Assembly: GCA_017464685.1 (NCBI GenBank)
Contig: JAFTYO010000003.1
Location: 8,137-72,136, forward strand
Direction of reading: 5' to 3'
Length of the DNA: 64,000 bases
Origin: Alphaproteobacteria bacterium
GTDB lineage: Bacteria > Pseudomonadota > Alphaproteobacteria > RF32 > CAG-239
Shown: positions 10,615-58,239 of the stretch, piece by piece
How the letters are laid out: the number at the start of each line of letters is the position of its first letter
Position numbering within the stretch: the stretch's first letter is position 1
Made by a program: the position numbers and the translations under genes
Notes under the pieces: generated by a model
Told to the model about the DNA's origin: nothing
What the model saw: only the letters and a program-made list of their open reading frames with translations
Database searches by the model: none

Positions 10615-11160
10615 ATGACGAAAAGTGCATCAAAAGATATATTGATTAAATTGCGACCGATAACATATTTAATCTGGTGTTTATTAATAATATTTGCAAG
10701 CATAAATATTTTTCAGATGGGGCTTGATACCAATACGCAAGGTTCAAGATGTGATTATTATTTATGGCAGGAAGGGCAGATTTATCAATGGATTATAGAC
10801 AATGAACCTTGCCGATTTACTTTAGAGTTTTTGGTCGGATATATTTTTTATTTTGTTTTATATACTTTGTTTGACTATGTTCGCAGACTGATAGTCGGTT
10901 TTAATCCGAAAACTGTTTGGCGAATTTGTGAAATCGGAGTATTATTCGGATTAATGTGGGGATATCTGCTTTGGCTTAGCGCAAACGCTTTTAACATGGT
11001 AAATTGGCAAGTGTATCTAAATTCATTTTTTGGAGTTTTATTATTTTTTATACCGATTATTTTTATTGCGATCTTGTTTCGTTTGTTTAATAATCGTACA
11101 GAATTATGCTTACTGTCATTAATTTTACTGCTCAGTTTAGGTTTTGTTATTGCAAATTAA
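10615..11160 (+). CDS. hypothetical multi-pass membrane protein
   Basis: Long ORF with 5-6 hydrophobic segments. No recognisable motif. Confidence 0.5.
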   Translation: MTKSASKDILIKLRPITYLIWCLLIIFASINIFQMGLDTNTQGSRCDYYLWQEGQIYQWIIDNEPCRFTLEFLVGYIFYFVLYTLFDYVRRLIVGFNPKTVWRICEIGVLFGLMWGYLLWLSANAFNMVNWQVYLNSFFGVLLFFIPIIFIAILFRLFNNRTELCLLSLILLLSLGFVIAN

Positions 11161-11205: not shown

Positions 11206-11697
11206 TTAGTAAGTTACAGTTAAAGTAAATGAACCGGTGTACTCACCTGCTAAGCTTTCCATTTCTGTATCTGCTGAACCGGGAATATAAAGAGTTGCTC
11301 CAATACGATATACATCGCCTGTATACTCGTCATAATATGCTTGGAAATCGCCTACGGTTAAATCGCCATTAGGTCCAGTAATTTTTGCATCATTTGGAAA
11401 GGTAATAGTAGAGCTATTACTAATATCACAAATTGCAGCAGACGAACCATTAACTGCTACAATCCTTTTACCACCTCCGTTATCTGTTATTTCAAAGTCA
11501 TCAAAAAGTATTTTAATATTACCCTCATTACCATCGTTTTTGTTGTCAAGAACAATATGACCGAAATTTAAAGGTGAACAAGTAATACTATCAGCCTCCG
11601 TAATTTTTGCAGTCATTTCAATTTCAGCATAATTGTCAGCGTTTGCGGTGCTTGTTGCCAAGAGTGCAATTGCGCTCAAAAGAAAATATTTTCTCAT
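11206..11697 (-). CDS. family copy 1: small secreted two-Cys beta-rich protein (SCPU/Csu-pilin-like layout)
   Basis: MRKYFLLSAIALLATSTANA signal peptide, C..NFGHI motif, a second Cys, and C-terminal AGEYTGSFTLTVTY. Preceded by the conserved cassette. Confidence 0.8.
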   Translation of the reverse strand: MRKYFLLSAIALLATSTANADNYAEIEMTAKITEADSITCSPLNFGHIVLDNKNDGNEGNIKILFDDFEITDNGGGKRIVAVNGSSAAICDISNSSTITFPNDAKITGPNGDLTVGDFQAYYDEYTGDVYRIGATLYIPGSADTEMESLAGEYTGSFTLTVTY

Positions 11698-11837
11698 AAT
11701 TTATATCCTTTCTATAAAAATTAAGTTTAAGTACATTTGAAAAGCTAAAAATTAGCCTCTCAGGTCGCATCTTAAACCGTTTTTTTTTTTTGCAAGTAAA
11801 AAGAGTCTTAATGTGAATTTAAATCAAAAATGGTGTA
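11698..11837 (-). promoter_or_regulatory. family promoter/5'UTR cassette, copy 1 (T12 tract 11780-11791)
   Basis: The reverse complement reads ..TTTGATTTAAAT..GACTCTTTTTACTTGC-A12-CGGTTTAAGATGCGACCTGAGAGGCTAATTTTTAGCTTTTCA..AGGA..ATG. It is nearly identical to the cassette at 29194-29331. Confidence 0.6.
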
Positions 11838-11976
11838 GAGGTGTTGCCTCCTTTACTGTCATACCGGTGCCCAAGCTTTAGCTTGGAATAGACACCGGTA
11901 TCCAGGGAATAATTTAGCTATATTACCACCTGGACTCCGGCATCAAGTGCCGGAGTGACAGTTAGGAGGTGGTTGC
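11838..11976 (+). repeat. structured repeat element A (long hairpin with two internal stem-loops)
   Basis: Arms GCCTCCTTTACTGTCA (11846-11861) and TGACAGTTAGGAGG (11956-11969). Inner hairpins CCAAGC-TTTA-GCTTGG (11871-11886) and CTCCGGCA-TCAA-GTGCCGGAG. Related copies lie at 57393-57505 and 37515-37650. Confidence 0.55.
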
Positions 11977-13856: not shown

Positions 13857-14312
13857 CTATGCAGAAAGAAATGTTACCTCAAATGATCCGGTATAACTTG
13901 TAGGAGTTACACCCGCAGGAATGGATAAAGTTCCATTAATTGAGTTATACTCCCATTGTTCAGGCTTAAATGTTAAAACTTTTGATTCGCCCTCTGCACT
14001 TAGGGTTACAGTTTCAGATGAAAAATACATGACAGATGCTGCATCTAATTGACAATAAGCAGCCTCTGGGGCATCAGCACTTACAAAATCAGGACTGTCA
14101 CTTTCCGTAGTTACATCATTAATTAGTCTAACATTTACATCGCCATGACCGGCTTTTAAATAAAGAGTGCCAAAATTCACATCAGAACAATTAACTTCAT
14201 TTGCGTGTGCAATAGTAACATTAACCGCTAATTCTGAATATGCATTACTTTCAGCATCAACATTTGTTGCCATCATCAAAGCCGCAGCAGTAAGAAGAAA
14301 ATATTTTCTCAT
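13857..14312 (-). CDS. family copy 2: small secreted two-Cys beta-rich protein
   Basis: MRKYFLLTAAALMMATNVDA signal peptide, C..NFGTLY motif, a second Cys, and C-terminal SYTGSFEVTFLSA. Confidence 0.8.
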   Translation of the reverse strand: MRKYFLLTAAALMMATNVDAESNAYSELAVNVTIAHANEVNCSDVNFGTLYLKAGHGDVNVRLINDVTTESDSPDFVSADAPEAAYCQLDAASVMYFSSETVTLSAEGESKVLTFKPEQWEYNSINGTLSIPAGVTPTSYTGSFEVTFLSA

Positions 14313-14449
14313 AATTTGTATCCTTTACAAAAATTAAGTTTAAATGTACTTGAAAGGAATCAAAATTAACCTTTCAAGATGCATCATAAACCGTTTTTTT
14401 TTTGCAAGTAAAAAGAGTCTTTGTGAATATTTAAATCAATTTTGAGGTA
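14313..14449 (-). promoter_or_regulatory. family promoter/5'UTR cassette, copy 2 (T10 tract 14394-14403; type-B UTR hairpin)
   Basis: The reverse complement reads ACCTCAAAATTGATTTAAAT..GACTCTTTTTACTTGC-A10-CGGTTTATGATGCATCTTGAAAGG..CCTTTCAAG..AGGA..ATG. Confidence 0.6.
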
Positions 14450-15807: not shown

Positions 15808-15835
15808 CCTCTCATTAAGAGAGGTTTGTTTTTAC
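15808..15835 (+). terminator. intrinsic terminator
   Basis: CCTCTC-ATTAA-GAGAGG hairpin followed by TTTGTTTTT. Confidence 0.55.
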
Positions 15836-15968
15836 CTCAAATTTGATTTAAATATTCACAAAGACTCTTTTTACTTGCAAAAAAAAACGGTTTATGATGC
15901 GACCTGAGAGGCTAATTTTTAGCTTTTCAAATGTACTTAAACTTAATTTTTGTAAAGGATTTAAAATT
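15834..15968 (+). promoter_or_regulatory. family promoter/5'UTR cassette, copy 3 (A9 tract 15879-15887)
   Basis: ACCTCAAATTTGATTTAAAT, then TTTACT (15870-15875), a 17-nt spacer and TATGAT (15893-15898). A UTR hairpin TGAGAGGCTA/TAGCTTTTCA and AAGGA precede the ATG at 15969. Confidence 0.6.
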
Positions 15969-16430
15969 ATGAGAAAATATTTTCTTTTATCTGCCGTAGC
16001 CATCATGGCTGCAACAAATGTAAATGCAACAACCGATTACGCAGAAATAACAGCTGAAGCAACCGTTAGTGTAGCAAAAGTATTACAATGTGCCAGCTAT
16101 ACCTTAAATATGGGAACTTTTACGATAAAAGAAGGCAATAATCCTATTGATATAATGGCTATGGATACTAGTAGCCCTTATTATGATTCTTCAGACATAA
16201 TCAATTTTGATATTCCTGAGACTAGTTATATATCCTGCTACGATGTAGATTTTTCAAGCGACTATGCCACATTTCCTAATAGAATTGATTTAACAGGAAC
16301 AACTCATAAACAAACTATACAAGCTTATTTATATGCTAGTGGAAGTGAAGTGCGTGGAATGCCCATTTTCCCTGCCGATGTTAAAGCTGATACTTACACC
16401 GGCTCATTCACCATAACATATACATATTAA
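15969..16430 (+). CDS. family copy 3: small secreted two-Cys beta-rich protein
   Basis: MRKYFLLSAVAIMAATNVNA signal peptide, two Cys, and C-terminal DTYTGSFTITYTY. The track ORF (15894) reads through the UTR, so the conserved ATG at 15969 is used. Confidence 0.8.
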   Translation: MRKYFLLSAVAIMAATNVNATTDYAEITAEATVSVAKVLQCASYTLNMGTFTIKEGNNPIDIMAMDTSSPYYDSSDIINFDIPETSYISCYDVDFSSDYATFPNRIDLTGTTHKQTIQAYLYASGSEVRGMPIFPADVKADTYTGSFTITYTY

Positions 16431-23845: not shown

Positions 23846-24583
23846 ATGAGTACTGTTTATATCAATCAACCGGTGATTATATTGGTAAAACCGCAAATGG
23901 CTGAGAACGTGGGTATGACTGCACGTGCAATGATGAATTGCGGATTGTATAATTTGCGTCTTGTTTGTCCCAGAGAAAACCATTTATCACAAATTGCCGT
24001 GAGAGCTTCCTCAGGCGCTGAAAAAATTTTACAAAATGCCAAAGTTTATAATTCTACCATTGAAGCGATTGCCGATTTAACAGACGTTTATGCCACAACG
24101 GCTCGGCGCAGAAACCAAATCAAAACAATATTTACAGCAGAAAAAGCTGCATCAAATATGTTCAAAAACATCAAAAACGGAGCAAATTGTGGAATTTTGT
24201 TTGGTCCTGAAAGAACAGGCCTTGAAAATGATGATATATCACTTGCTAAAGCTATTGTGGAAATTCCGCTAAATCCGGAACACACTTCACTTAATTTGTC
24301 GCAGGCAGTGTTGCTTGTAGGATATGAGTGGTTTAAAACTCAAATAGATGTATCGGGTGAAGAATTTGTAACCAATGCAACCCACTTAGCCACTAATGAA
24401 CAACTGATGAAGTTTTTTGACTTTTGGGAAAATAAATTAATTGATTATAAAAATCTTGCTGATGAGCAAAAAAAAACCATATTGTTACGCAACTTACATA
24501 ACATTTTTACTCGCAACCGAATGACTGAACAAGAACTAAACAGCTTGTATGGAATCATTAATTATTTAGTAAAAAATAAATAA
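23846..24583 (+). CDS. trmJ: SpoU/TrmH-family RNA 2'-O-methyltransferase (TrmJ-like)
   Basis: ILVKPQMAENVGMTARAMMNCG, ILFGPERTGL and SLNLSQAV motifs of SPOUT methyltransferases. Confidence 0.7.
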   Translation: MSTVYINQPVIILVKPQMAENVGMTARAMMNCGLYNLRLVCPRENHLSQIAVRASSGAEKILQNAKVYNSTIEAIADLTDVYATTARRRNQIKTIFTAEKAASNMFKNIKNGANCGILFGPERTGLENDDISLAKAIVEIPLNPEHTSLNLSQAVLLVGYEWFKTQIDVSGEEFVTNATHLATNEQLMKFFDFWENKLIDYKNLADEQKKTILLRNLHNIFTRNRMTEQELNSLYGIINYLVKNK

Positions 24584-29193: not shown

Positions 29194-29331
29194 CACCTCA
29201 AATTTGATTTAAATTCTTTAAACGACTCTTTTTACTTGCAAAAAAAAAAACGGTTTAAGATGCGACCTGAGAGGCTAATTTTTAGCTTTTCAAATGTACT
29301 TAAACTTAATTTTTATAGAAAGGATTAAATT
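29194..29331 (+). promoter_or_regulatory. family promoter/5'UTR cassette, copy 4 (A11 tract 29240-29250)
   Basis: CACCTCAAATTTGATTTAAAT..GACTCTTTTTACTTGC-A11-CGGTTTAAGATGCGACCTGAGAGGCTAATTTTTAGCTTTTCA..AGGA..ATG. Confidence 0.6.
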
Positions 29332-29799
29332 ATGAGAAAATATTTTCTTCTTGGTGCTGTGGCAATGCTTGCCGCAAGCAATGCAAGTGCTGAGAATACA
29401 ACATATACATTAGAGGCGCAAGCCAAAGTTGCTTTATCATCTAAAGTAAATTGCACAACTTGGGATTGGGGTACAATTTATCTTAACGACCTTGAGATTG
29501 ACAATATTGAATTACAAGCATATGGTGCAGAAATCACTCCAAGCGGTACTGATGTTGATAAGTTTTCGGATATTATAGGATATAAATCAGCCGTTTGTGA
29601 AGGGATTTCATATGAGGGAAGTGTTTATTTACCCGATTTTTTCGTAATTAATGATGGTGGTATAGGAATGAGAATAGAAAACATTACAATAGATGAGGAA
29701 TATGTATTAAGCGGAACACTTGTTTTAGACAGTGGTGGTGTACCTTATGATACATCCAGAACTTACACAGGTTCAGTTACTTTTACTGTTATAAATTAA
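29332..29799 (+). CDS. family copy 4: small secreted two-Cys beta-rich protein
   Basis: MRKYFLLGAVAMLAASNASA signal peptide, C..WDWGTIY motif, a second Cys, and C-terminal RTYTGSVTFTVIN. Confidence 0.8.
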   Translation: MRKYFLLGAVAMLAASNASAENTTYTLEAQAKVALSSKVNCTTWDWGTIYLNDLEIDNIELQAYGAEITPSGTDVDKFSDIIGYKSAVCEGISYEGSVYLPDFFVINDGGIGMRIENITIDEEYVLSGTLVLDSGGVPYDTSRTYTGSVTFTVIN

Positions 29800-32300: not shown

Positions 32301-32843
32301 TCAATCGGTATTGGTAAAGAATTTTCTCTTGTTAGTGTTATGTTGTTTTTTTTTTGCATATTCCTTAGAATATACTGAAGTAGGAGTACCATAACCAAAC
32401 CTAATTTCACTTACTCCTGATGTTGCAGTTATCCAATCCACAGTAGCAAGGGCTGTGCAAATATTTTGAGGTATACCATAATATTCTATATACATATATG
32501 TAGAGGAAAAAGAAATATCCATCTTACCTCCAAACGGACTTATAAGGTTGTTTGTTTCTCCATCCCACATATATTCGGGTACGAGATTTAAATTTTTTAG
32601 TAAAGAACAACCGGTTTTAACTGATCCGGAAAAGCAAGGATATTCATTGCACTTATTAGCTCCATCTAAGCATAAAGTTCTAATGCCTTGAGATATGGTA
32701 GTGATATCTTGAATGGTTTTATTTATCTTATGCTTAAACATCGCCTTAGAATAACCGGCAATACCACCGACAGAGAGTACACCGATAATGGCTAATACAC
32801 CAAGCATTTCAACCATACTTCTACCCGATTGTAAATTCTTCAT
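32301..32843 (-). CDS. type IV pilin / pseudopilin-like protein 1 (prepilin-type N-terminus)
   Basis: MKNLQSGRSMVEMLGVLAIIGVLSVGGIAGYSKAM has Gly then Glu at +5 and a hydrophobic helix. The C-terminal domain is Cys-containing and variable. AGGAG lies before the ATG at 32843. Confidence 0.7.
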   Translation of the reverse strand: MKNLQSGRSMVEMLGVLAIIGVLSVGGIAGYSKAMFKHKINKTIQDITTISQGIRTLCLDGANKCNEYPCFSGSVKTGCSLLKNLNLVPEYMWDGETNNLISPFGGKMDISFSSTYMYIEYYGIPQNICTALATVDWITATSGVSEIRFGYGTPTSVYSKEYAKKKQHNTNKRKFFTNTD

Positions 32844-32867
32844 ATATATCTCCTTTAAAATAATCAC

Positions 32868-33060
32868 AAAAAAACCCACTTTAAAAAGCGGGCGGATGTT
32901 CGAAAACCGTATAACTTCAAACGGCTCGGTTTATTTGACATTGAGCCTTATTCAACCGACATCCGCCTAACGACAGAGGTCGGCATATTATTTATGGTCG
33001 CTTATGCGTTGCGACTGAAGTTATAAAGGGTTTCGATGCCCTAAATGCGAAAACTTCGCA
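32868..33060. ncRNA. highly structured intergenic element (candidate 5' leader of the pilin-like gene or an independent RNA)
   Basis: Perfect 9-bp helix 32891-32899/32959-32967. Long-range helix 32901-32919/33016-33035, which cannot nest with the first. Hairpins GGCTC..GAGCC, GTCGC..GCGAC and ATGCGAA-AAC-TTCGCAT. On the minus strand, CCCGC-loop-GUGGG plus U7 sits just before the SD. Confidence 0.35.
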
Positions 33061-54267: not shown

Positions 54268-54966
54268 GTGTATAATTTGCCTAATATATTAACAATTTCC
54301 AGAATTTTAGTAATTCCGGTTATTTTTCTGTCTTTGTATATAAATTCTTTTGCGTGGACAATGTTTATCGGTGTGCTGTTCGTAACGGCTTCAATTACCG
54401 ACTATTTTGACGGCTACTTGGCAAGATGTCGCAACCAGACGTCTGCTTTCGGTCGTTTGTTAGACCCTATTGCCGACAAGCTTTTGGTTGCTTCGGCTTT
54501 GGTGGTGATTTTGGTAAAACCCGATATGGTTTTTTCAAAACTCAGCTATATTCCGGTGTTTGTAATTTTGTGTCGTGAAATTTTGGTTTCAGGCTTGAGA
54601 GAATTTTTGCGTGAAGTTAATGTCGGTTTGCCGGTTACTCGTTTGGCAAAATGGAAAACAGGTTTTCAGATGACAGCGCTTGCCATGATGCTTTTTCACG
54701 GTTTGTGGATATGGCATTATATCGGTGAATTGTTGTTGTGGGTTGCCGGTGTTTTAACCTTTATTACCGGATATCAATATTTTCAAAAGAGTGTTGATTA
54801 TGTAAAATCTTTGGAAAAAGCCAAAACGGTTGAGGCAAAAATTGTTGTAAAAAAAACTGCGACCAAAAAAGTTGCTCAAAAGAAAACAACCGCTAAAAAA
54901 ACCGTTGCAAAAAAAACTACGACAACAACAAAAAAAGCAACCAAAAAATCGGCTAAAAAGCAATAA
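54268..54966 (+). CDS. pgsA: CDP-diacylglycerol--glycerol-3-phosphate 3-phosphatidyltransferase with a Lys/Thr/Ala-rich C-terminal tail
   Basis: CDP-alcohol phosphatidyltransferase motif DYFDGYLARCRNQTSAFGRLLDPIADK. The ~45-aa tail is KKTATKKVAQKKTTAKKTVAKKTTTTTKKATKKSAKKQ. Confidence 0.85.
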   Translation: MYNLPNILTISRILVIPVIFLSLYINSFAWTMFIGVLFVTASITDYFDGYLARCRNQTSAFGRLLDPIADKLLVASALVVILVKPDMVFSKLSYIPVFVILCREILVSGLREFLREVNVGLPVTRLAKWKTGFQMTALAMMLFHGLWIWHYIGELLLWVAGVLTFITGYQYFQKSVDYVKSLEKAKTVEAKIVVKKTATKKVAQKKTTAKKTVAKKTTTTTKKATKKSAKKQ

Positions 54967-55655
54967 TGGAAAAAGAAACTCAACATATTTTGGTCGTTGA
55001 TGATGATACCAGACTGCGAAGCCTGTTGAAACGCTTTTTGCGAGAACAGGGATTTGCGGTTTCTGATGCTCAAGATGCTAATCAGGCTTTGGAGTTTTTA
55101 AATCAGTATAAGTTTGATTTGTTGATTGTTGATGTTATGATGCCCAAAATCAGCGGAATTGAGTTTTTGAAAGAATTGCGTTTAGAAAATAATGTGCCGG
55201 TAATTATGCTAACTGCCATGGGTGAAACAGCTGACCGAATCGTGGGTTTAGAATCGGGGGCTGATGATTATATTGCCAAGCCGTTTGAGCCTTTGGAACT
55301 GGTTTTAAGAATAAAAAACATTCTAAAGCGAGCACCAATAGAAAAAAATGACAATCAGGCACCGCTTAATTTGGGTTTGTGTCTTTATGATGTCATAAAA
55401 AAAGAGCTTACCACCAAGCAAGGGGTGATTATACACATTACACCGGTTGAGCAAATGCTCTTAAATATTTTAAGTCAGAAAGTGGGGCAGATTTTTACTC
55501 GTGAAAAATTAGCCGATATTTTAGGCTCGGGACAAAGTCCTCGTTCGATAGATGTGCAAATTACACGACTTAGAAAAAAAATTGAGAAAGATTCAAAAAA
55601 TCCGAGATATTTACAAACAATTCGAGGCAAAGGCTATATGCTTTTGCCCGAATAA
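54966..55655 (+). CDS. ompR: OmpR-family response regulator
   Basis: ILVVDDDTRLRSLLKRFLREQGF is close to E. coli OmpR. Contains DVMMP, GADDYIAKPF and a winged-helix C-terminus (IRGKGYML). TAATG overlap with pgsA. Confidence 0.8.
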   Translation: MEKETQHILVVDDDTRLRSLLKRFLREQGFAVSDAQDANQALEFLNQYKFDLLIVDVMMPKISGIEFLKELRLENNVPVIMLTAMGETADRIVGLESGADDYIAKPFEPLELVLRIKNILKRAPIEKNDNQAPLNLGLCLYDVIKKELTTKQGVIIHITPVEQMLLNILSQKVGQIFTREKLADILGSGQSPRSIDVQITRLRKKIEKDSKNPRYLQTIRGKGYMLLPE

Positions 55656-55672
55656 AAACTTAGGAGAAAAAT

Positions 55673-57028
55673 ATGCATATTAAATTTCCCAAAAAAATGG
55701 AAGGAACAATGCGCTATTTGAAGCTCAAACTTCTTCCGAAAACACTTTTTTTCAGAACAATGCTCTTGATTATCATTCCCTTAATTGTGGTACAAATTGT
55801 TTCTGTAGTGGCATATTTTAGCGGCAGTTGGGGTAAAGTCGGTAAAAGATTGTCTGATAACTTGAGTGCAAATATGGCTTTTGTGGTTAATCTATCAGAA
55901 CAAAATTTTGATGAGTTTGAAAACATTAAGGCCTTAACCAAAAAACTTTATAATTTAGATGTTGAGTTTTATGATAACGATATTAAATATTCGGAGATGT
56001 ATAAAACATCACAGAATAATGATATGGTTACCGGATTTTTTGAAGAAGCATTGAAAAGTGATTTTCCGAATGCAAAAACAAACCTTTATTTAACCGAAAA
56101 ATCGTCAACTTTGATAGCACTTATTGATACAAAAGACGGGTTGTTTAAGTTTACAACATCGACTAAAAACATTTTCTCATCATCATTGTTCGGTTTTATT
56201 GCGTGGATGGTCGGAACTTCTTTGTTGTTGTTTATTGTTTCATCACTGTTTTTAAGAACTCAAGCTCGCTCAATTAAAGAATTGGCAGAAGCTGCGGAAG
56301 ATTTCGGTAAGGGAATCGACACTCCGTTTAAGCCGTACGGCTCATCGGAAGTCAGAAAAGCCGGAATTGCTTTTACAAAGATGAAAGAAAGAATTAATCG
56401 TCAAATTTCGGAACGCACACAAATGCTTGCCGGTGTTTCGCACGATTTGAGAACACCTTTAACTCGTATGAAGTTACAGTTGGCAATGTTGCCTAAAAAT
56501 GAAGATAATCAGGAGTTTGTTGAAGATATTACCGAAATGGAAAAAATGCTTGACGGCTATCTGGCATTTGTCAGCGGTGAGGGTGGTGAAACTAACACTT
56601 TTGTTGATATGAACGAAATGATACTCAGCATATTAAACAAATTCCGCAATTCCAAAACCATGATAAGATACACCACCAATGACCAAGTAAGTGCAATTCA
56701 GGGTCGTGAACAGGCCTTAAAAAGGGCGGTTACCAATATTATATCCAATGCATTTTATTACGGGAAAACCGTTGCAGTGGGTTTGGAAAGTAATAACAGC
56801 AAAATGGAAATCAGGGTTGATGATGATGGGCCGGGAATTCCTGAAGATAAAAGAGAAGAAGTGTTTAAGGCTTTTTACCGCATTGAAGGCTCTCGTAACA
56901 AAGAAACCGGCGGTGTCGGTTTGGGGTTGTCAATTGCCAGAGATATCATTGTTTCACACGGCGGAACAATTGAGCTTGGCATCAGCGATATGGGAGGCTT
57001 GAGGGTACTCATTCATATTCCCTTATAA
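55673..57028 (+). CDS. envZ: EnvZ-like sensor histidine kinase
   Basis: Two TM segments and a HAMP region. H-box LAGVSHDLRTPLTRMKLQL, N-box NAFYYG, and G-boxes DDDGPGIP and GGVGLGLSI. Confidence 0.8.
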   Translation: MHIKFPKKMEGTMRYLKLKLLPKTLFFRTMLLIIIPLIVVQIVSVVAYFSGSWGKVGKRLSDNLSANMAFVVNLSEQNFDEFENIKALTKKLYNLDVEFYDNDIKYSEMYKTSQNNDMVTGFFEEALKSDFPNAKTNLYLTEKSSTLIALIDTKDGLFKFTTSTKNIFSSSLFGFIAWMVGTSLLLFIVSSLFLRTQARSIKELAEAAEDFGKGIDTPFKPYGSSEVRKAGIAFTKMKERINRQISERTQMLAGVSHDLRTPLTRMKLQLAMLPKNEDNQEFVEDITEMEKMLDGYLAFVSGEGGETNTFVDMNEMILSILNKFRNSKTMIRYTTNDQVSAIQGREQALKRAVTNIISNAFYYGKTVAVGLESNNSKMEIRVDDDGPGIPEDKREEVFKAFYRIEGSRNKETGGVGLGLSIARDIIVSHGGTIELGISDMGGLRVLIHIPL

Positions 57029-57091: not shown

Positions 57092-57253
57092 TTAATAAGT
57101 TGTATATACGCTACCGGTATAACTGCCTGTAGGTATATTTTGGTATGTTGCAGGAATAACTAAATCGCCACCAATATTAATTTTATTTTCTTCACTATAT
57201 GTTTTTAAATTGTTAATATGAAGTTCAACAGTAAGAAGAAAATATTTTCTCAT
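57092..57253 (-). pseudogene. family copy 5: internally deleted remnant (53 codons)
   Basis: MRKYFLLT is joined directly to VELHINNLKTY...PTGSYTGSVYTTY*. The signal-peptide core and most of the mature domain are missing. The promoter cassette is intact. Confidence 0.6.
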
Positions 57254-57392
57254 AATTTTATCCTTTATATAAAAATTAAGTTTAAGTACCTTTGAAAGGT
57301 GCAAAAATCCACCTTTCAAGACGCATCATAAACCGTTTTTTTTTTTTGCAAGTAAAAAGAGTCTGTTTGTAGATTTAAATCAAAAATGATGT
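57254..57392 (-). promoter_or_regulatory. family promoter/5'UTR cassette, copy 5 (T12 tract 57336-57347; type-B UTR hairpin)
   Basis: The reverse complement reads CATTTTTGATTTAAAT..GACTCTTTTTACTTGC-A12-CGGTTTATGATGCGTCTTGAAAGGTG..CACCTTTCAA..AGGA..ATG. Confidence 0.6.
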
Positions 57393-57505
57393 GGCGGTGT
57401 GGCCTCCAACACCATCATACCGGTGCCCGAACTTTAGTTCGGAATAGATACCGGCGTCTAATCTTCGCTAGCGCTCAGGCGCAGAAATGACGATATTGAG
57501 AGAAA
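57393..57505 (+). repeat. structured repeat element B
   Basis: GGCCTCC..CATACCGGTGCCCGAACTTTAGTTCGGAATAGATACCGG aligns with element A. The inner hairpin CCGAAC-TTTA-GTTCGG (57427-57442) differs from A by two compensatory pairs. Confidence 0.55.
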
Positions 57506-57606
57506 CACCTCAAAGATGACTAAATATCCACAAAGAAGACTCGCATAAATTGCAAAAAAAAAAACGGTTTATGATGAGCTCAAAATATATTATAGGAGTT
57601 AGTTTG
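57506..57606 (+). promoter_or_regulatory. diverged family-type promoter module driving pilin-like gene 2 (A11 tract 57554-57564)
   Basis: CACCTCAAAGATGACTAAAT..AAGACTCGCATAAATTGC-A11-CGGTTTATGATG parallels the family cassette. AGGAG precedes the ATG at 57607. Confidence 0.5.
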
Positions 57607-58239
57607 ATGAGAAAAATTTGTGAACTTGGCAGAAGTATGGTGGAGATGTTAGGTGTTCTTGCAATTATTGGTGTTCTTTCCGTCGGTGGTATCACAGGTT
57701 ACTCAAAAGCGATGATGAAATATAAACTCAACAAGCATGCTCAGCAATTAAGTCAATTATTAAACACTTTATACAGATATAAAAACAGTTGGGGTGAAAA
57801 TCCTCCCCCAATGGAACTTGGGGGATATTTTATTACAATGGGAGAAATTCCTGAAGAAATGATTATAGATGGCTCAAACGTTCTTCAAGATTCATTTGAT
57901 AACCGAATACATATGCAAACAAATGGATGTTCCAATAATGGATGTACTGATGTAATCTTAAGATATACTGTTGGTGAAAATAATGATATAGAACTCTGCC
58001 AAAACATATTTACAGTAGCAAAAAGTTTTCATCAAAATTTGTATGTTGCCGGAGCTTATAAAACAACACAAGATAATTCAATAGAACAATATGATAATGA
58101 CAGATTTTATGGTGATAAATATTGTGATGGAAAAAATTGTCTTAGAAATCTAACTCTGGACGATATATACAATAAATGTCAATACTTGGCAGATAGAGTC
58201 TCAGGAAGCTACTATTTCCTATTTAATCTAAACGACTAA
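57607..58239 (+). CDS. type IV pilin / pseudopilin-like protein 2
   Basis: MRKICELGRSMVEMLGVLAIIGVLSVGGITGYSKAM is nearly identical at protein level to the N-terminus of the gene at 32301-32843. The C-terminal domain is unrelated and Cys-containing. Confidence 0.7.
   Translation: MRKICELGRSMVEMLGVLAIIGVLSVGGITGYSKAMMKYKLNKHAQQLSQLLNTLYRYKNSWGENPPPMELGGYFITMGEIPEEMIIDGSNVLQDSFDNRIHMQTNGCSNNGCTDVILRYTVGENNDIELCQNIFTVAKSFHQNLYVAGAYKTTQDNSIEQYDNDRFYGDKYCDGKNCLRNLTLDDIYNKCQYLADRVSGSYYFLFNLND

Follow-up and report, generated by a model that had tools for sequence, protein, structure and literature searches.

What does a pure run of adenines do when it stands in otherwise nearly identical promoters and differs in length from one to the next? 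The question is raised by a 64,000-nucleotide stretch (hereafter the window) of contig JAFTYO010000003.1 (GCA_017464685.1) from an Alphaproteobacteria bacterium, in which five copies of a gene family for small secreted proteins, and one type-IV-pilin-like gene, are each preceded by a module with a poly(A) tract upstream of a probable -10 hexamer. The preliminary description of this DNA proposed a candidate phase-variation switch and singled out the copy with nine adenines (A9) as the only one with the optimal 17-bp spacing; the comparative evidence available does not support a switch with A9 as the single gene in the ON state. Our analysis favours, with a probability of about one half, the reading that the tract is a fixed and maintained part of a lineage-specific promoter class, in which twelve adenines are the norm, recognition would involve an activator or an alternative sigma factor, and A9 to A11 would be fixed slippage variants that tune individual copies.

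The six tracts are exactly as first described in both coordinates and lengths, and can be read directly from the sequence: A12 at 11780-11791 (reverse strand; copy 1, gene 11206-11697); A10 at 14394-14403 (reverse strand; copy 2, gene 13857-14312); A9 at 15879-15887 (forward strand; copy 3, gene 15969-16430); A11 at 29240-29250 (forward strand; copy 4, gene 29332-29799); A12 at 57336-57347 (reverse strand; copy 5, truncated, gene 57092-57253); and A11 at 57554-57564 (forward strand) in the diverged module of the pilin-like gene (57607-58239). On the gene strand, the flanks of the window copies read GACTCTTTTTAC-TTGC-A(n)-CGGTTTA(T/A)GATG, while the pilin-like module has GACTCGCATAAA in place of GACTCTTTTTAC and shares the core TTGC-A(n)-CGGTTTATGATG with the family. 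The pattern TTACTTGC-A(n) has five exact occurrences in the window and one more with two mismatches, compared to an expectation of 0.93, and six or more occurrences were seen in 0 of 100 shuffles. All homopolymers of 11 or more bases in the window are these promoter tracts. The flanks are near-identical, as had been noted, and tract length is by far the most variable part of a nearly invariant module: it is off-modal in 19 of 102 family promoters, versus at most 2% variation at adjacent positions.

The module is far more abundant outside the window. A scan of one genome per species for TTGC-A(6+)-CGGTTTAWGATG returned matches that, among those listed, come almost entirely from one metagenome-assembled genome (MAG), Alphaproteobacteria bacterium SIG55, which shares synteny with the window and is 85-90% identical to it in nucleotide sequence. 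SIG55 contains about 100 module copies, a lower bound, in front of genes that begin MRKYFLL and are dispersed as single genes. Additional copies occur in a second ruminant MAG species (GCA_017408505) and at a goat-gut locus assembled in three JGI metagenomes. In two scans of JGI metagenome contigs the family pattern had no match, and the core pattern gave only chance matches in coding sequence; the element appears restricted to a gut alphaproteobacterial lineage. Several assemblers produced contigs that stop at or within the promoter or 5'-untranslated-region (5'-UTR) module (L087, L091, L092, L098, L100, L101, L119, L120 and many in SIG55). Since repeated modules fragment assemblies, the copy numbers of the family in MAGs are lower bounds and, because the modules are repeats, contig ends in Logan and ENA are uninformative on tract heterogeneity.

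In 102 non-redundant promoters of the family, from at least four species, the tract is A12 in 83, A11 in 12, A9 in four, A13 in two and A10 in one, and a pattern permitting any spacer bases found no interrupted tract among the 102. The 11 pilin-like promoters carry A7, A8, A10, A11 (four) and A12 (four), and both promoters of a third secreted family carry A12. A12 is also the most frequent length both in SIG55 and in the second ruminant species, and it is found at the single goat-gut locus, though in the window genome it occurs in only 2 of 5 family copies. A12 is thus the canonical length in this lineage. Apart from a few that are truncated or cut, the A12 copies have open reading frames of 140-185 amino acids, and their -10 hexamer, hairpin and Shine-Dalgarno site are conserved; these intact reading frames and expression signals argue that A12 copies are expressed rather than silent. 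The idea that A9 marks the one copy with an optimal promoter does not fit a norm that holds across species and gene families. A9 was seen on four different module backgrounds (window 15879-15887, L019, L032 and L045) and A10 only once, and this excess of A9 over A10, judging from the counts, is unlike a stepwise decay from A12.

Are these lengths real, and do they change? The available evidence consists of consensus assemblies from ENA, JGI, NCBI and Logan, in which minority variants are hidden. In the window strain, copies 1 to 4 (A12, A10, A9 and A11) show no length change in 2-5 other assemblies per locus that are at least 99.8% identical; the identical length recurs, for instance, in five other assemblies for A10 of copy 2, in three for A9 of copy 3 and in four for A11 of copy 4, and the pilin-like A11 of the window is likewise present in MAG RGIG3968 (L024). 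In the second ruminant species, tracts of A11, A12, A12 and A12 were each seen in 2-3 assemblies that differ by 0.3-1% (39 single-nucleotide polymorphisms in 6.4 kb; 8 mismatches in 881 bp). At off-modal loci of SIG55, one A9 tract recurs in four assemblies and three A11 tracts in three, five and four assemblies (SIG55 counted), at 0-0.1% divergence; a further goat-gut locus has A12 in three assemblies (0% divergence). Altogether, about 45 observations at about 13 promoters, with 2-6 assemblies each and including the strains diverged by 0.3-1%, contain no length change at the same locus. The lengths are real, locus-specific and stable, the off-modal ones included. Errors of homopolymer sequencing or assembly might have been suspected, given the low k-mer coverage of SIG55 (about 2.8x in the contig names) and the error-prone nature of homopolymers, but this explanation is refuted by the recurrence of each length, including A9, A10 and A11, in 2-6 independent assemblies.

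Between species, by contrast, the lengths do change. Copy 1 (A12) has an A9 positional orthologue in SIG55 (L019), copy 3 (A9) has an A12 positional orthologue (L086), and copy 4 (A11) has two candidate orthologues (L078 and L052), both A12. All three syntenic loci therefore differ between the species, which indicates that slippage mutations arise and become fixed, slowly.

This pattern bears directly on slipped-strand phase variation, in which tract length would toggle the promoters ON and OFF at high frequency and so give combinatorial or one-at-a-time expression of surface proteins. The tracts are pure, long (9-13 adenines, where about eight or more would suffice for slippage) and located in the core promoter of secreted-protein genes, no character of the module varies more than tract length, and the architecture is shared with the vlp genes of Mycoplasma hyorhinis. 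However, not one of the promoters followed changed in length, even among the diverged strains and at the off-modal A9, A10 and A11 loci. In addition, a switch with A12 as the OFF state would leave more than 80% of three gene families silent, although their reading frames and expression signals are intact; silent intact copies would need frequent switching, of which the stability data give no sign, and a neutral OFF state should spread lengths broadly instead of producing an 81% spike. The preliminary description had itself named tracts that are monomorphic across related strains as evidence against a switch, and this is what is seen at the consensus level. Fast phase variation thus appears to be without comparative support here, and we regard it as a possible but doubtful explanation.

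One contig suggests a different route to variation. In L137 (ENA ERZ27248351 k141_1112714), the upstream gene, A9 promoter and hairpin of one locus are joined to the coding region of another paralogue and the transketolase gene downstream of it, with the crossover within a shared 5'-UTR stretch of about 40 nucleotides (compared with L129 and L135). The junction reflects either real recombination between paralogues, with a swap of promoter or cassette, or a chimeric assembly, and it hints at cassette recombination. An antigenic variation system of about 100 genes can be imagined, in which the A12 promoters are silent, the A9 copies, with their restored 17-bp spacing, are expressed, and recombination in the conserved 5' module swaps coding cassettes behind an active promoter; we consider such a system quite improbable.

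To ask how length could matter, the module itself has to be considered. In copy 3 (forward strand) it begins with an upstream box, ACCTCA(A/T)(A/T)TTTGATTTAAAT at 15834-15853 (TACCTCA(T/A)(T/A)TTTGATTTAAAT in the modules generally), which is at least 90% conserved over 89 full-length modules, followed by a variable segment of 9-10 nucleotides (15854-15862 in copy 3) that has a few discrete alleles. Next comes GACTCTTTTTAC with TTGC (15863-15878), which is invariant in the family and contains both candidate -35 elements, TTTACT (15870-15875) and TTGCAA (15875-15880, reaching into the tract). The tract is followed by CGGTT and TATGAT (15888-15898), invariant across families, with the probable -10 hexamer at 15893-15898; the pilin-like modules of SIG55 have TAGAAT at the -10 position instead. 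About 7 nucleotides 3' of TATGAT lies a 5'-UTR hairpin with arms TGAGAGGCTAA and TTAGCTTTTCA (15905-15929), and downstream of it AT-rich sequence, then the Shine-Dalgarno site AAGGA and the ATG start codon.

The hairpin (TGAAAGG-loop-CCTTTCA) occurs at the equivalent position in every module, for example at 11739-11765 on the reverse strand, and is the centroid structure in three window copies. Its seven stem pairs are kept across 48 distinct sequences: all 24 of the 24 one-sided changes give G-U pairs on the sense strand, 4 cells are unpaired, and double compensatory changes were absent from the 48 sequences. Because a G-U pair in the sense strand would correspond to a C-A mismatch in its complement, the element can be read as a hairpin formed by RNA at the extreme 5' end of the transcript, where it is probably an mRNA stabiliser. 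Its location would place the start site just upstream of the hairpin and make TATGAT the -10; the tract would then span about -18 to -29 from the predicted start. TATGAT is probably the -10 hexamer, as both its conservation and the hairpin about 7 nucleotides downstream suggest, and a tract upstream of it lies in the spacer in any sigma-70-like register.

Two further features were noted in or near the modules. In two family promoters (L002, +24; L007, +356) TTGC is mutated to TTGA, which gives a run of 13 adenines. A 38-nucleotide imperfect palindrome, CCGGTGTCTATTCCAAGCTAAAGCTTGGGCACCGGTAT, stands about 60 nucleotides upstream of some modules; it occurs at 11861-11898 and 57417-57454 (both reverse strand) and likewise upstream of the modules in L108, L109, L111 and L135. 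Its inner arms vary as pairs between copies and strains (CCAAGC..GCTTGG versus CCGAAC..GTTCGG), and it could act as a terminator or insulator, serve to bind a protein or represent a small mobile repeat.

Of the proposed position between the -35 and -10 elements, the place upstream of the probable -10 is supported by conservation, and the -35 may be either TTTACT or TTGCAA. With TTTACT the spacer is n+8, that is, 17 bp at A9 and 20 bp at A12; with TTGCAA it is n+3, or 12 bp at A9 and 15 bp at A12. A spacing of 16-18 bp is thus obtained only with A9 (and A10) in the TTTACT register and only with A13 or A14 in the TTGCAA register, and A12 gives no such sigma-70 spacing with either candidate. The earlier statement that copy 3 alone has a 17-bp spacer is correct in the TTTACT register and in no other. 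A consensus promoter scan called TTTACT-17-TATGAT at 15870-15898 in copy 3, at chance level for the region (1 found, 1.4 expected), and made no call for the A12 promoter of copy 1.

Other modules speak against TTTACT as the -35 element that had been assumed. From the GACTCTTTTTAC-TTGC segment, the pilin-like and other core-sharing modules keep only GACTC and TTGC; the position of TTTACT reads ATAAAT, TAAAAT or TAAAGT in modules outside the family, whereas TTGC is retained. The single interrupted pilin-like tract (L075; AAAAAAAACCCCTC, A8CCCCTC, a 14-nucleotide spacer) places exactly 17 bp between TTGCAA and TATGAT, and an A13 promoter (L053) has 16 bp in the same register. On the other hand, the pilin-like gene L016 has the TTTACT of the family with A8, which gives 16 bp in the TTTACT register. 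No single -35 register suits all modules. In the same genomes, TTGAnn-N-TAnnnT pairs upstream of non-family genes show a sharp peak at a 17-bp spacer, with 29 pairs observed and 6.2 expected. The spacing needs of the housekeeping polymerase are therefore ordinary, and A12 is off-optimal in both registers.

That A12 falls outside 16-18 bp, in a lineage whose ordinary promoters peak at 17, also counts in favour of a switch, and two versions of it can be formulated. In the first, A9 (TTTACT-17-TATGAT) would be ON and A12 the resting OFF state; A9 is indeed more frequent than A10 and on several backgrounds, but ON and OFF states three steps apart make a poor switch. In the second, TTGCAA would be the -35, A13 or A14 (16-17 bp) ON, and A12 (15 bp) one step below; TTGC is the element kept across gene families, and the interrupted, 'locked' L075 and the A13 promoter L053 have the appropriate 17 and 16 bp. 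Both versions share the difficulties with stability and intact A12 copies described above.

At the other extreme, length may hardly matter. The tract could be a length-tolerant element, such as rigid or bent DNA or a sequence that keeps silencing proteins off, or the promoters could have no -35 at a fixed distance, in which case the differences would be near-neutral slippage. Copies with A9 to A13 are mostly full-length and have conserved modules, off-modal lengths persist across strains and do not revert to A12, the pilin-like genes accept A7 to A12 and one mixed 14-nucleotide spacer, and promoter scans found no convincing -35 at a fixed distance. The sharp A12 mode in several species and families is not expected under such tolerance, unless gene conversion homogenises the modules, and the sigma-70-type spacing of the lineage is a strict 17 +/- 1, so that a tract adjoining the -10 should matter if a -35 is contacted. 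We therefore think it unlikely that the tract is simply tolerant of its length.

The reading we favour is that of a maintained promoter class. Its core is TTGC-A(~12)-CGGTT-TATGAT, downstream of which come an mRNA hairpin at the 5' terminus and a Shine-Dalgarno site, and the A tract would be an integral, selectively maintained part of it. The class would drive at least three secreted families in uncultured ruminant-gut Alphaproteobacteria: DUF4402-like beta-sandwich proteins, type-IV-pilin-like proteins and cysteine-rich proteins. Because A12 fits no standard spacing, these promoters may depend on something other than plain recognition by the housekeeping sigma factor, for example an activator or a dedicated alternative sigma factor. 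The A9, A10 and A11 tracts of the window would be slipped-strand mutations that became fixed at single loci; such variants would heritably alter promoter geometry and probably set copy-specific expression levels. Length would change on an evolutionary time scale, between species, and would not act as a rapid reversible switch.

Several points weigh against this reading. The -35 element, the start site and the effect of length on expression are all predictions from sequence, and neither a dedicated sigma factor nor an activator was identified in our analysis. Concerted evolution of the module by gene conversion, and not selection on the exact length, could have produced the sharp A12 peak. The preponderance of A9 over A10 (four versus one, on four backgrounds), together with the TTTACT-17-TATGAT that A9 creates, fits A9 as a second, constitutively active state. 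Also, most same-species assemblies are 99.9-100% identical, so that only the second ruminant species (0.3-1%) is a powerful test of stability, and minority length variants are concealed in consensus sequences.

Other promoter types were compared by eye with their consensus sequences, and none of them fits. For sigma-54 (TGGCAC-N5-TTGC) the TTGC is there and the GG of the -24 element is missing. For sigma-28 (TAAA-N15-GCCGATAA) the pilin module has TAAA-N15, but no more than 2-4 of the 8 positions of its -10 agree, and TAAA is missing from the family module. For ECF/EcfG (GGAAC-N16-17-CGTT), CGGTT resembles CGTT, but the sequence 16 nucleotides upstream is TTTAC or TAAAA, which is not GGAAC-like, and the distance between the elements differs between gene families. 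For sigma-32 (CTTGAAA-N13-15-CCCCATNT), CTTGCAA fits at 6 of 7 positions, but neither the -10 nor the spacing agrees. A SigB/F-like promoter (GTTTAA-N12-14-GGGTAT) could take GGTTTA as its -35, but the corresponding -10 would fall in the variable hairpin loop, and the pilin modules have no such -10. Two roles unrelated to a spacer were rejected as well: as an UP element of a downstream promoter, the tract has no conserved -10 downstream of it, and the hairpin must be transcribed; as a terminator tail on the opposite strand (T12), its closest hairpin is more than 12 nucleotides away.

The genes behind these promoters share a common plan. Copies 1 to 4 encode proteins of 151-163 amino acids whose signal peptides (MRKYFLL...) are nearly identical, whose mature parts diverge and which share the motif YTGSFT-T-TY at the C-terminus; the copy-3 gene (15969-16430, forward strand) encodes a secreted protein of 153 amino acids. 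With a Pfam cut-off of 25.2 bits for DUF4402 (PF14352), copy 1 scores 29.0 and copy 2 19.9, which is below it, and copies 3 and 4 have no match; many homologues, in addition, have a precomputed PF14352 match or the name DUF4402 at NCBI. The AlphaFold model of copy 3 is all-beta (predicted local distance difference test, pLDDT, 85.5), and its Foldseek matches are weak (E about 0.04, template modelling score, TM, 0.32), the top ones all being chaperone-usher pilins (Caf1, SafA and Csu). This modelled likeness is a lead rather than a classification. A profile search of PDB sequences gave no match, an Rfam search gave tRNA only, and no chaperone or usher gene was seen among the annotated genes of the window. 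Copy 5 (57092-57253, reverse strand) is a 53-amino-acid remnant in which an in-frame internal deletion has fused the signal-peptide start to the C-terminal third, and it retains the canonical A12 promoter, the hairpin and the Shine-Dalgarno site.

Type-IV-pilin-like genes form a second multi-copy family on the same core (TTGC-A(n)-CGGTTTA(G/T)(A/G)AT), with loci in SIG55 (L004, L010, L016, L044, L055, L057, L065, L073, L075 and L084) and in the window (57546-58239); their tracts vary more in length (A7 to A12). The window gene at 57607-58239 has a prepilin-type N-terminus, MRKICELG|RSMVEMLGVLAIIGVLSVGG, with a leader that ends in G, a hydrophobic helix and E at +5; NCBIfam gives it a weak match, far below the cut-off (E 4.5e-4), to a prepilin-peptidase-dependent protein. 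Signal peptides can thus be read in the first family and a prepilin-type N-terminus in the pilin-like gene of the window; surface exposure of the proteins is putative. The third family on this core is secreted and cysteine-containing, MIK(L/M)FLF..LVFPLVSEATTCVKDY (MIK(L/M)FLF...CVKDY), and occurs at L025 (+3615) and at the locus end of L057 (reverse strand). An unrelated secreted protein in a MAG of another alphaproteobacterial genus (BRZ_FB bin86; L053, -6832) stands behind the same core with A13.

Three neighbouring features of the window may be mentioned. An OmpR-type response regulator and its histidine kinase (54966-57028) are encoded immediately upstream of the promoters of copy 5 and the pilin-like gene, which are divergent, and it is a matter of speculation that this pair is a candidate regulator. 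An open reading frame at 10615-11160 (181 amino acids, no Pfam match) lies between a colicin-V-production gene and copy 1; SIG55 and L107 are without it, and the family gene there abuts the colicin-V gene. A T10 run at 32346-32355 (A10 on the reverse strand), inside the open reading frame 32301-32879 (reverse strand), is a possible slippage site in a coding region; with the A9 runs at 24468-24476 and 62655-62663 it belongs to the homopolymers outside these promoters that can serve as controls.

Homopolymers in promoter spacers are a classic route by which pathogens vary their surface antigens, and several such systems can be compared with the one described here. The vlp genes of M. hyorhinis are, like these, a multigene family of variable surface or secreted proteins, in which each gene has a conserved promoter, 5'-UTR and signal peptide, with a pure poly(A) tract upstream of the -10, and a divergent mature region. 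In vlp, tract length shifts at high frequency and correlates with the ON and OFF states (PMC10502178), whereas each locus here holds its length across strains and samples and A12 dominates. The present family is also far larger (about 100 copies in one relative) and consists of dispersed single genes in place of a cluster, the host is a Gram-negative alphaproteobacterium, and the proteins are not lipoproteins. The closest precedent for a maintained promoter class is the poly(A) tract of the Neisseria meningitidis nspA promoter, upstream of the -10, which serves as a heritable rheostat and not as a fast switch: expression is low with 5A and high with 6A, each lineage has its own fixed length, and phase variation was not detected when tested for directly (PMC6389960). 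The nspA case concerns 5-6 adenines at a single gene; here there are 9-13 at more than 100 promoters, long enough that appreciable slippage would be expected. In the poly(C) and poly(G) tracts of Neisseria opc and porA and the (TA)n repeat of Haemophilus hif, a simple repeat between -35 and -10 sets the spacer and the promoter strength of surface proteins or pili; in opc, for instance, 11C changed to 12C or 14C in 5 of 17 clones (PMC6389960). Those repeats differ between isolates and colonies, which was not seen here in the consensus assemblies, and their functional lengths give 16-18 bp spacers, unlike the canonical A12. As to the proteins, DUF4402 members and chaperone-usher pilins (Caf1, SafA, CsuA/B) resemble the family in their length of about 150 amino acids, in the presence of a signal peptide, in their all-beta fold and in the motif G-x-Y-T-G-x-F-T-x-T-x-T-Y at the C-terminus; however, copies 2 to 4 lie below the Pfam cut-off and the structural matches are weak. 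A full-text literature search for DUF4402 returned no match.

The class of mechanism, a spacer homopolymer that sets promoter geometry, is thus already known, and what we describe is an unusually extensive example, with a lineage and gene families that are new to the class. To our knowledge, promoter-spacer homopolymers are undescribed in uncultured gut Alphaproteobacteria, and we know of no case on such a scale, with over 100 promoters in one genome and three families of secreted proteins. The repeated modules break assemblies, so that the copy number of such families is undercounted in MAGs. A long promoter homopolymer that differs between paralogues is not by itself evidence of phase variation. 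If, on the other hand, tract length does control expression in this lineage, the expression of each paralogue would be predictable from the genome sequence alone.

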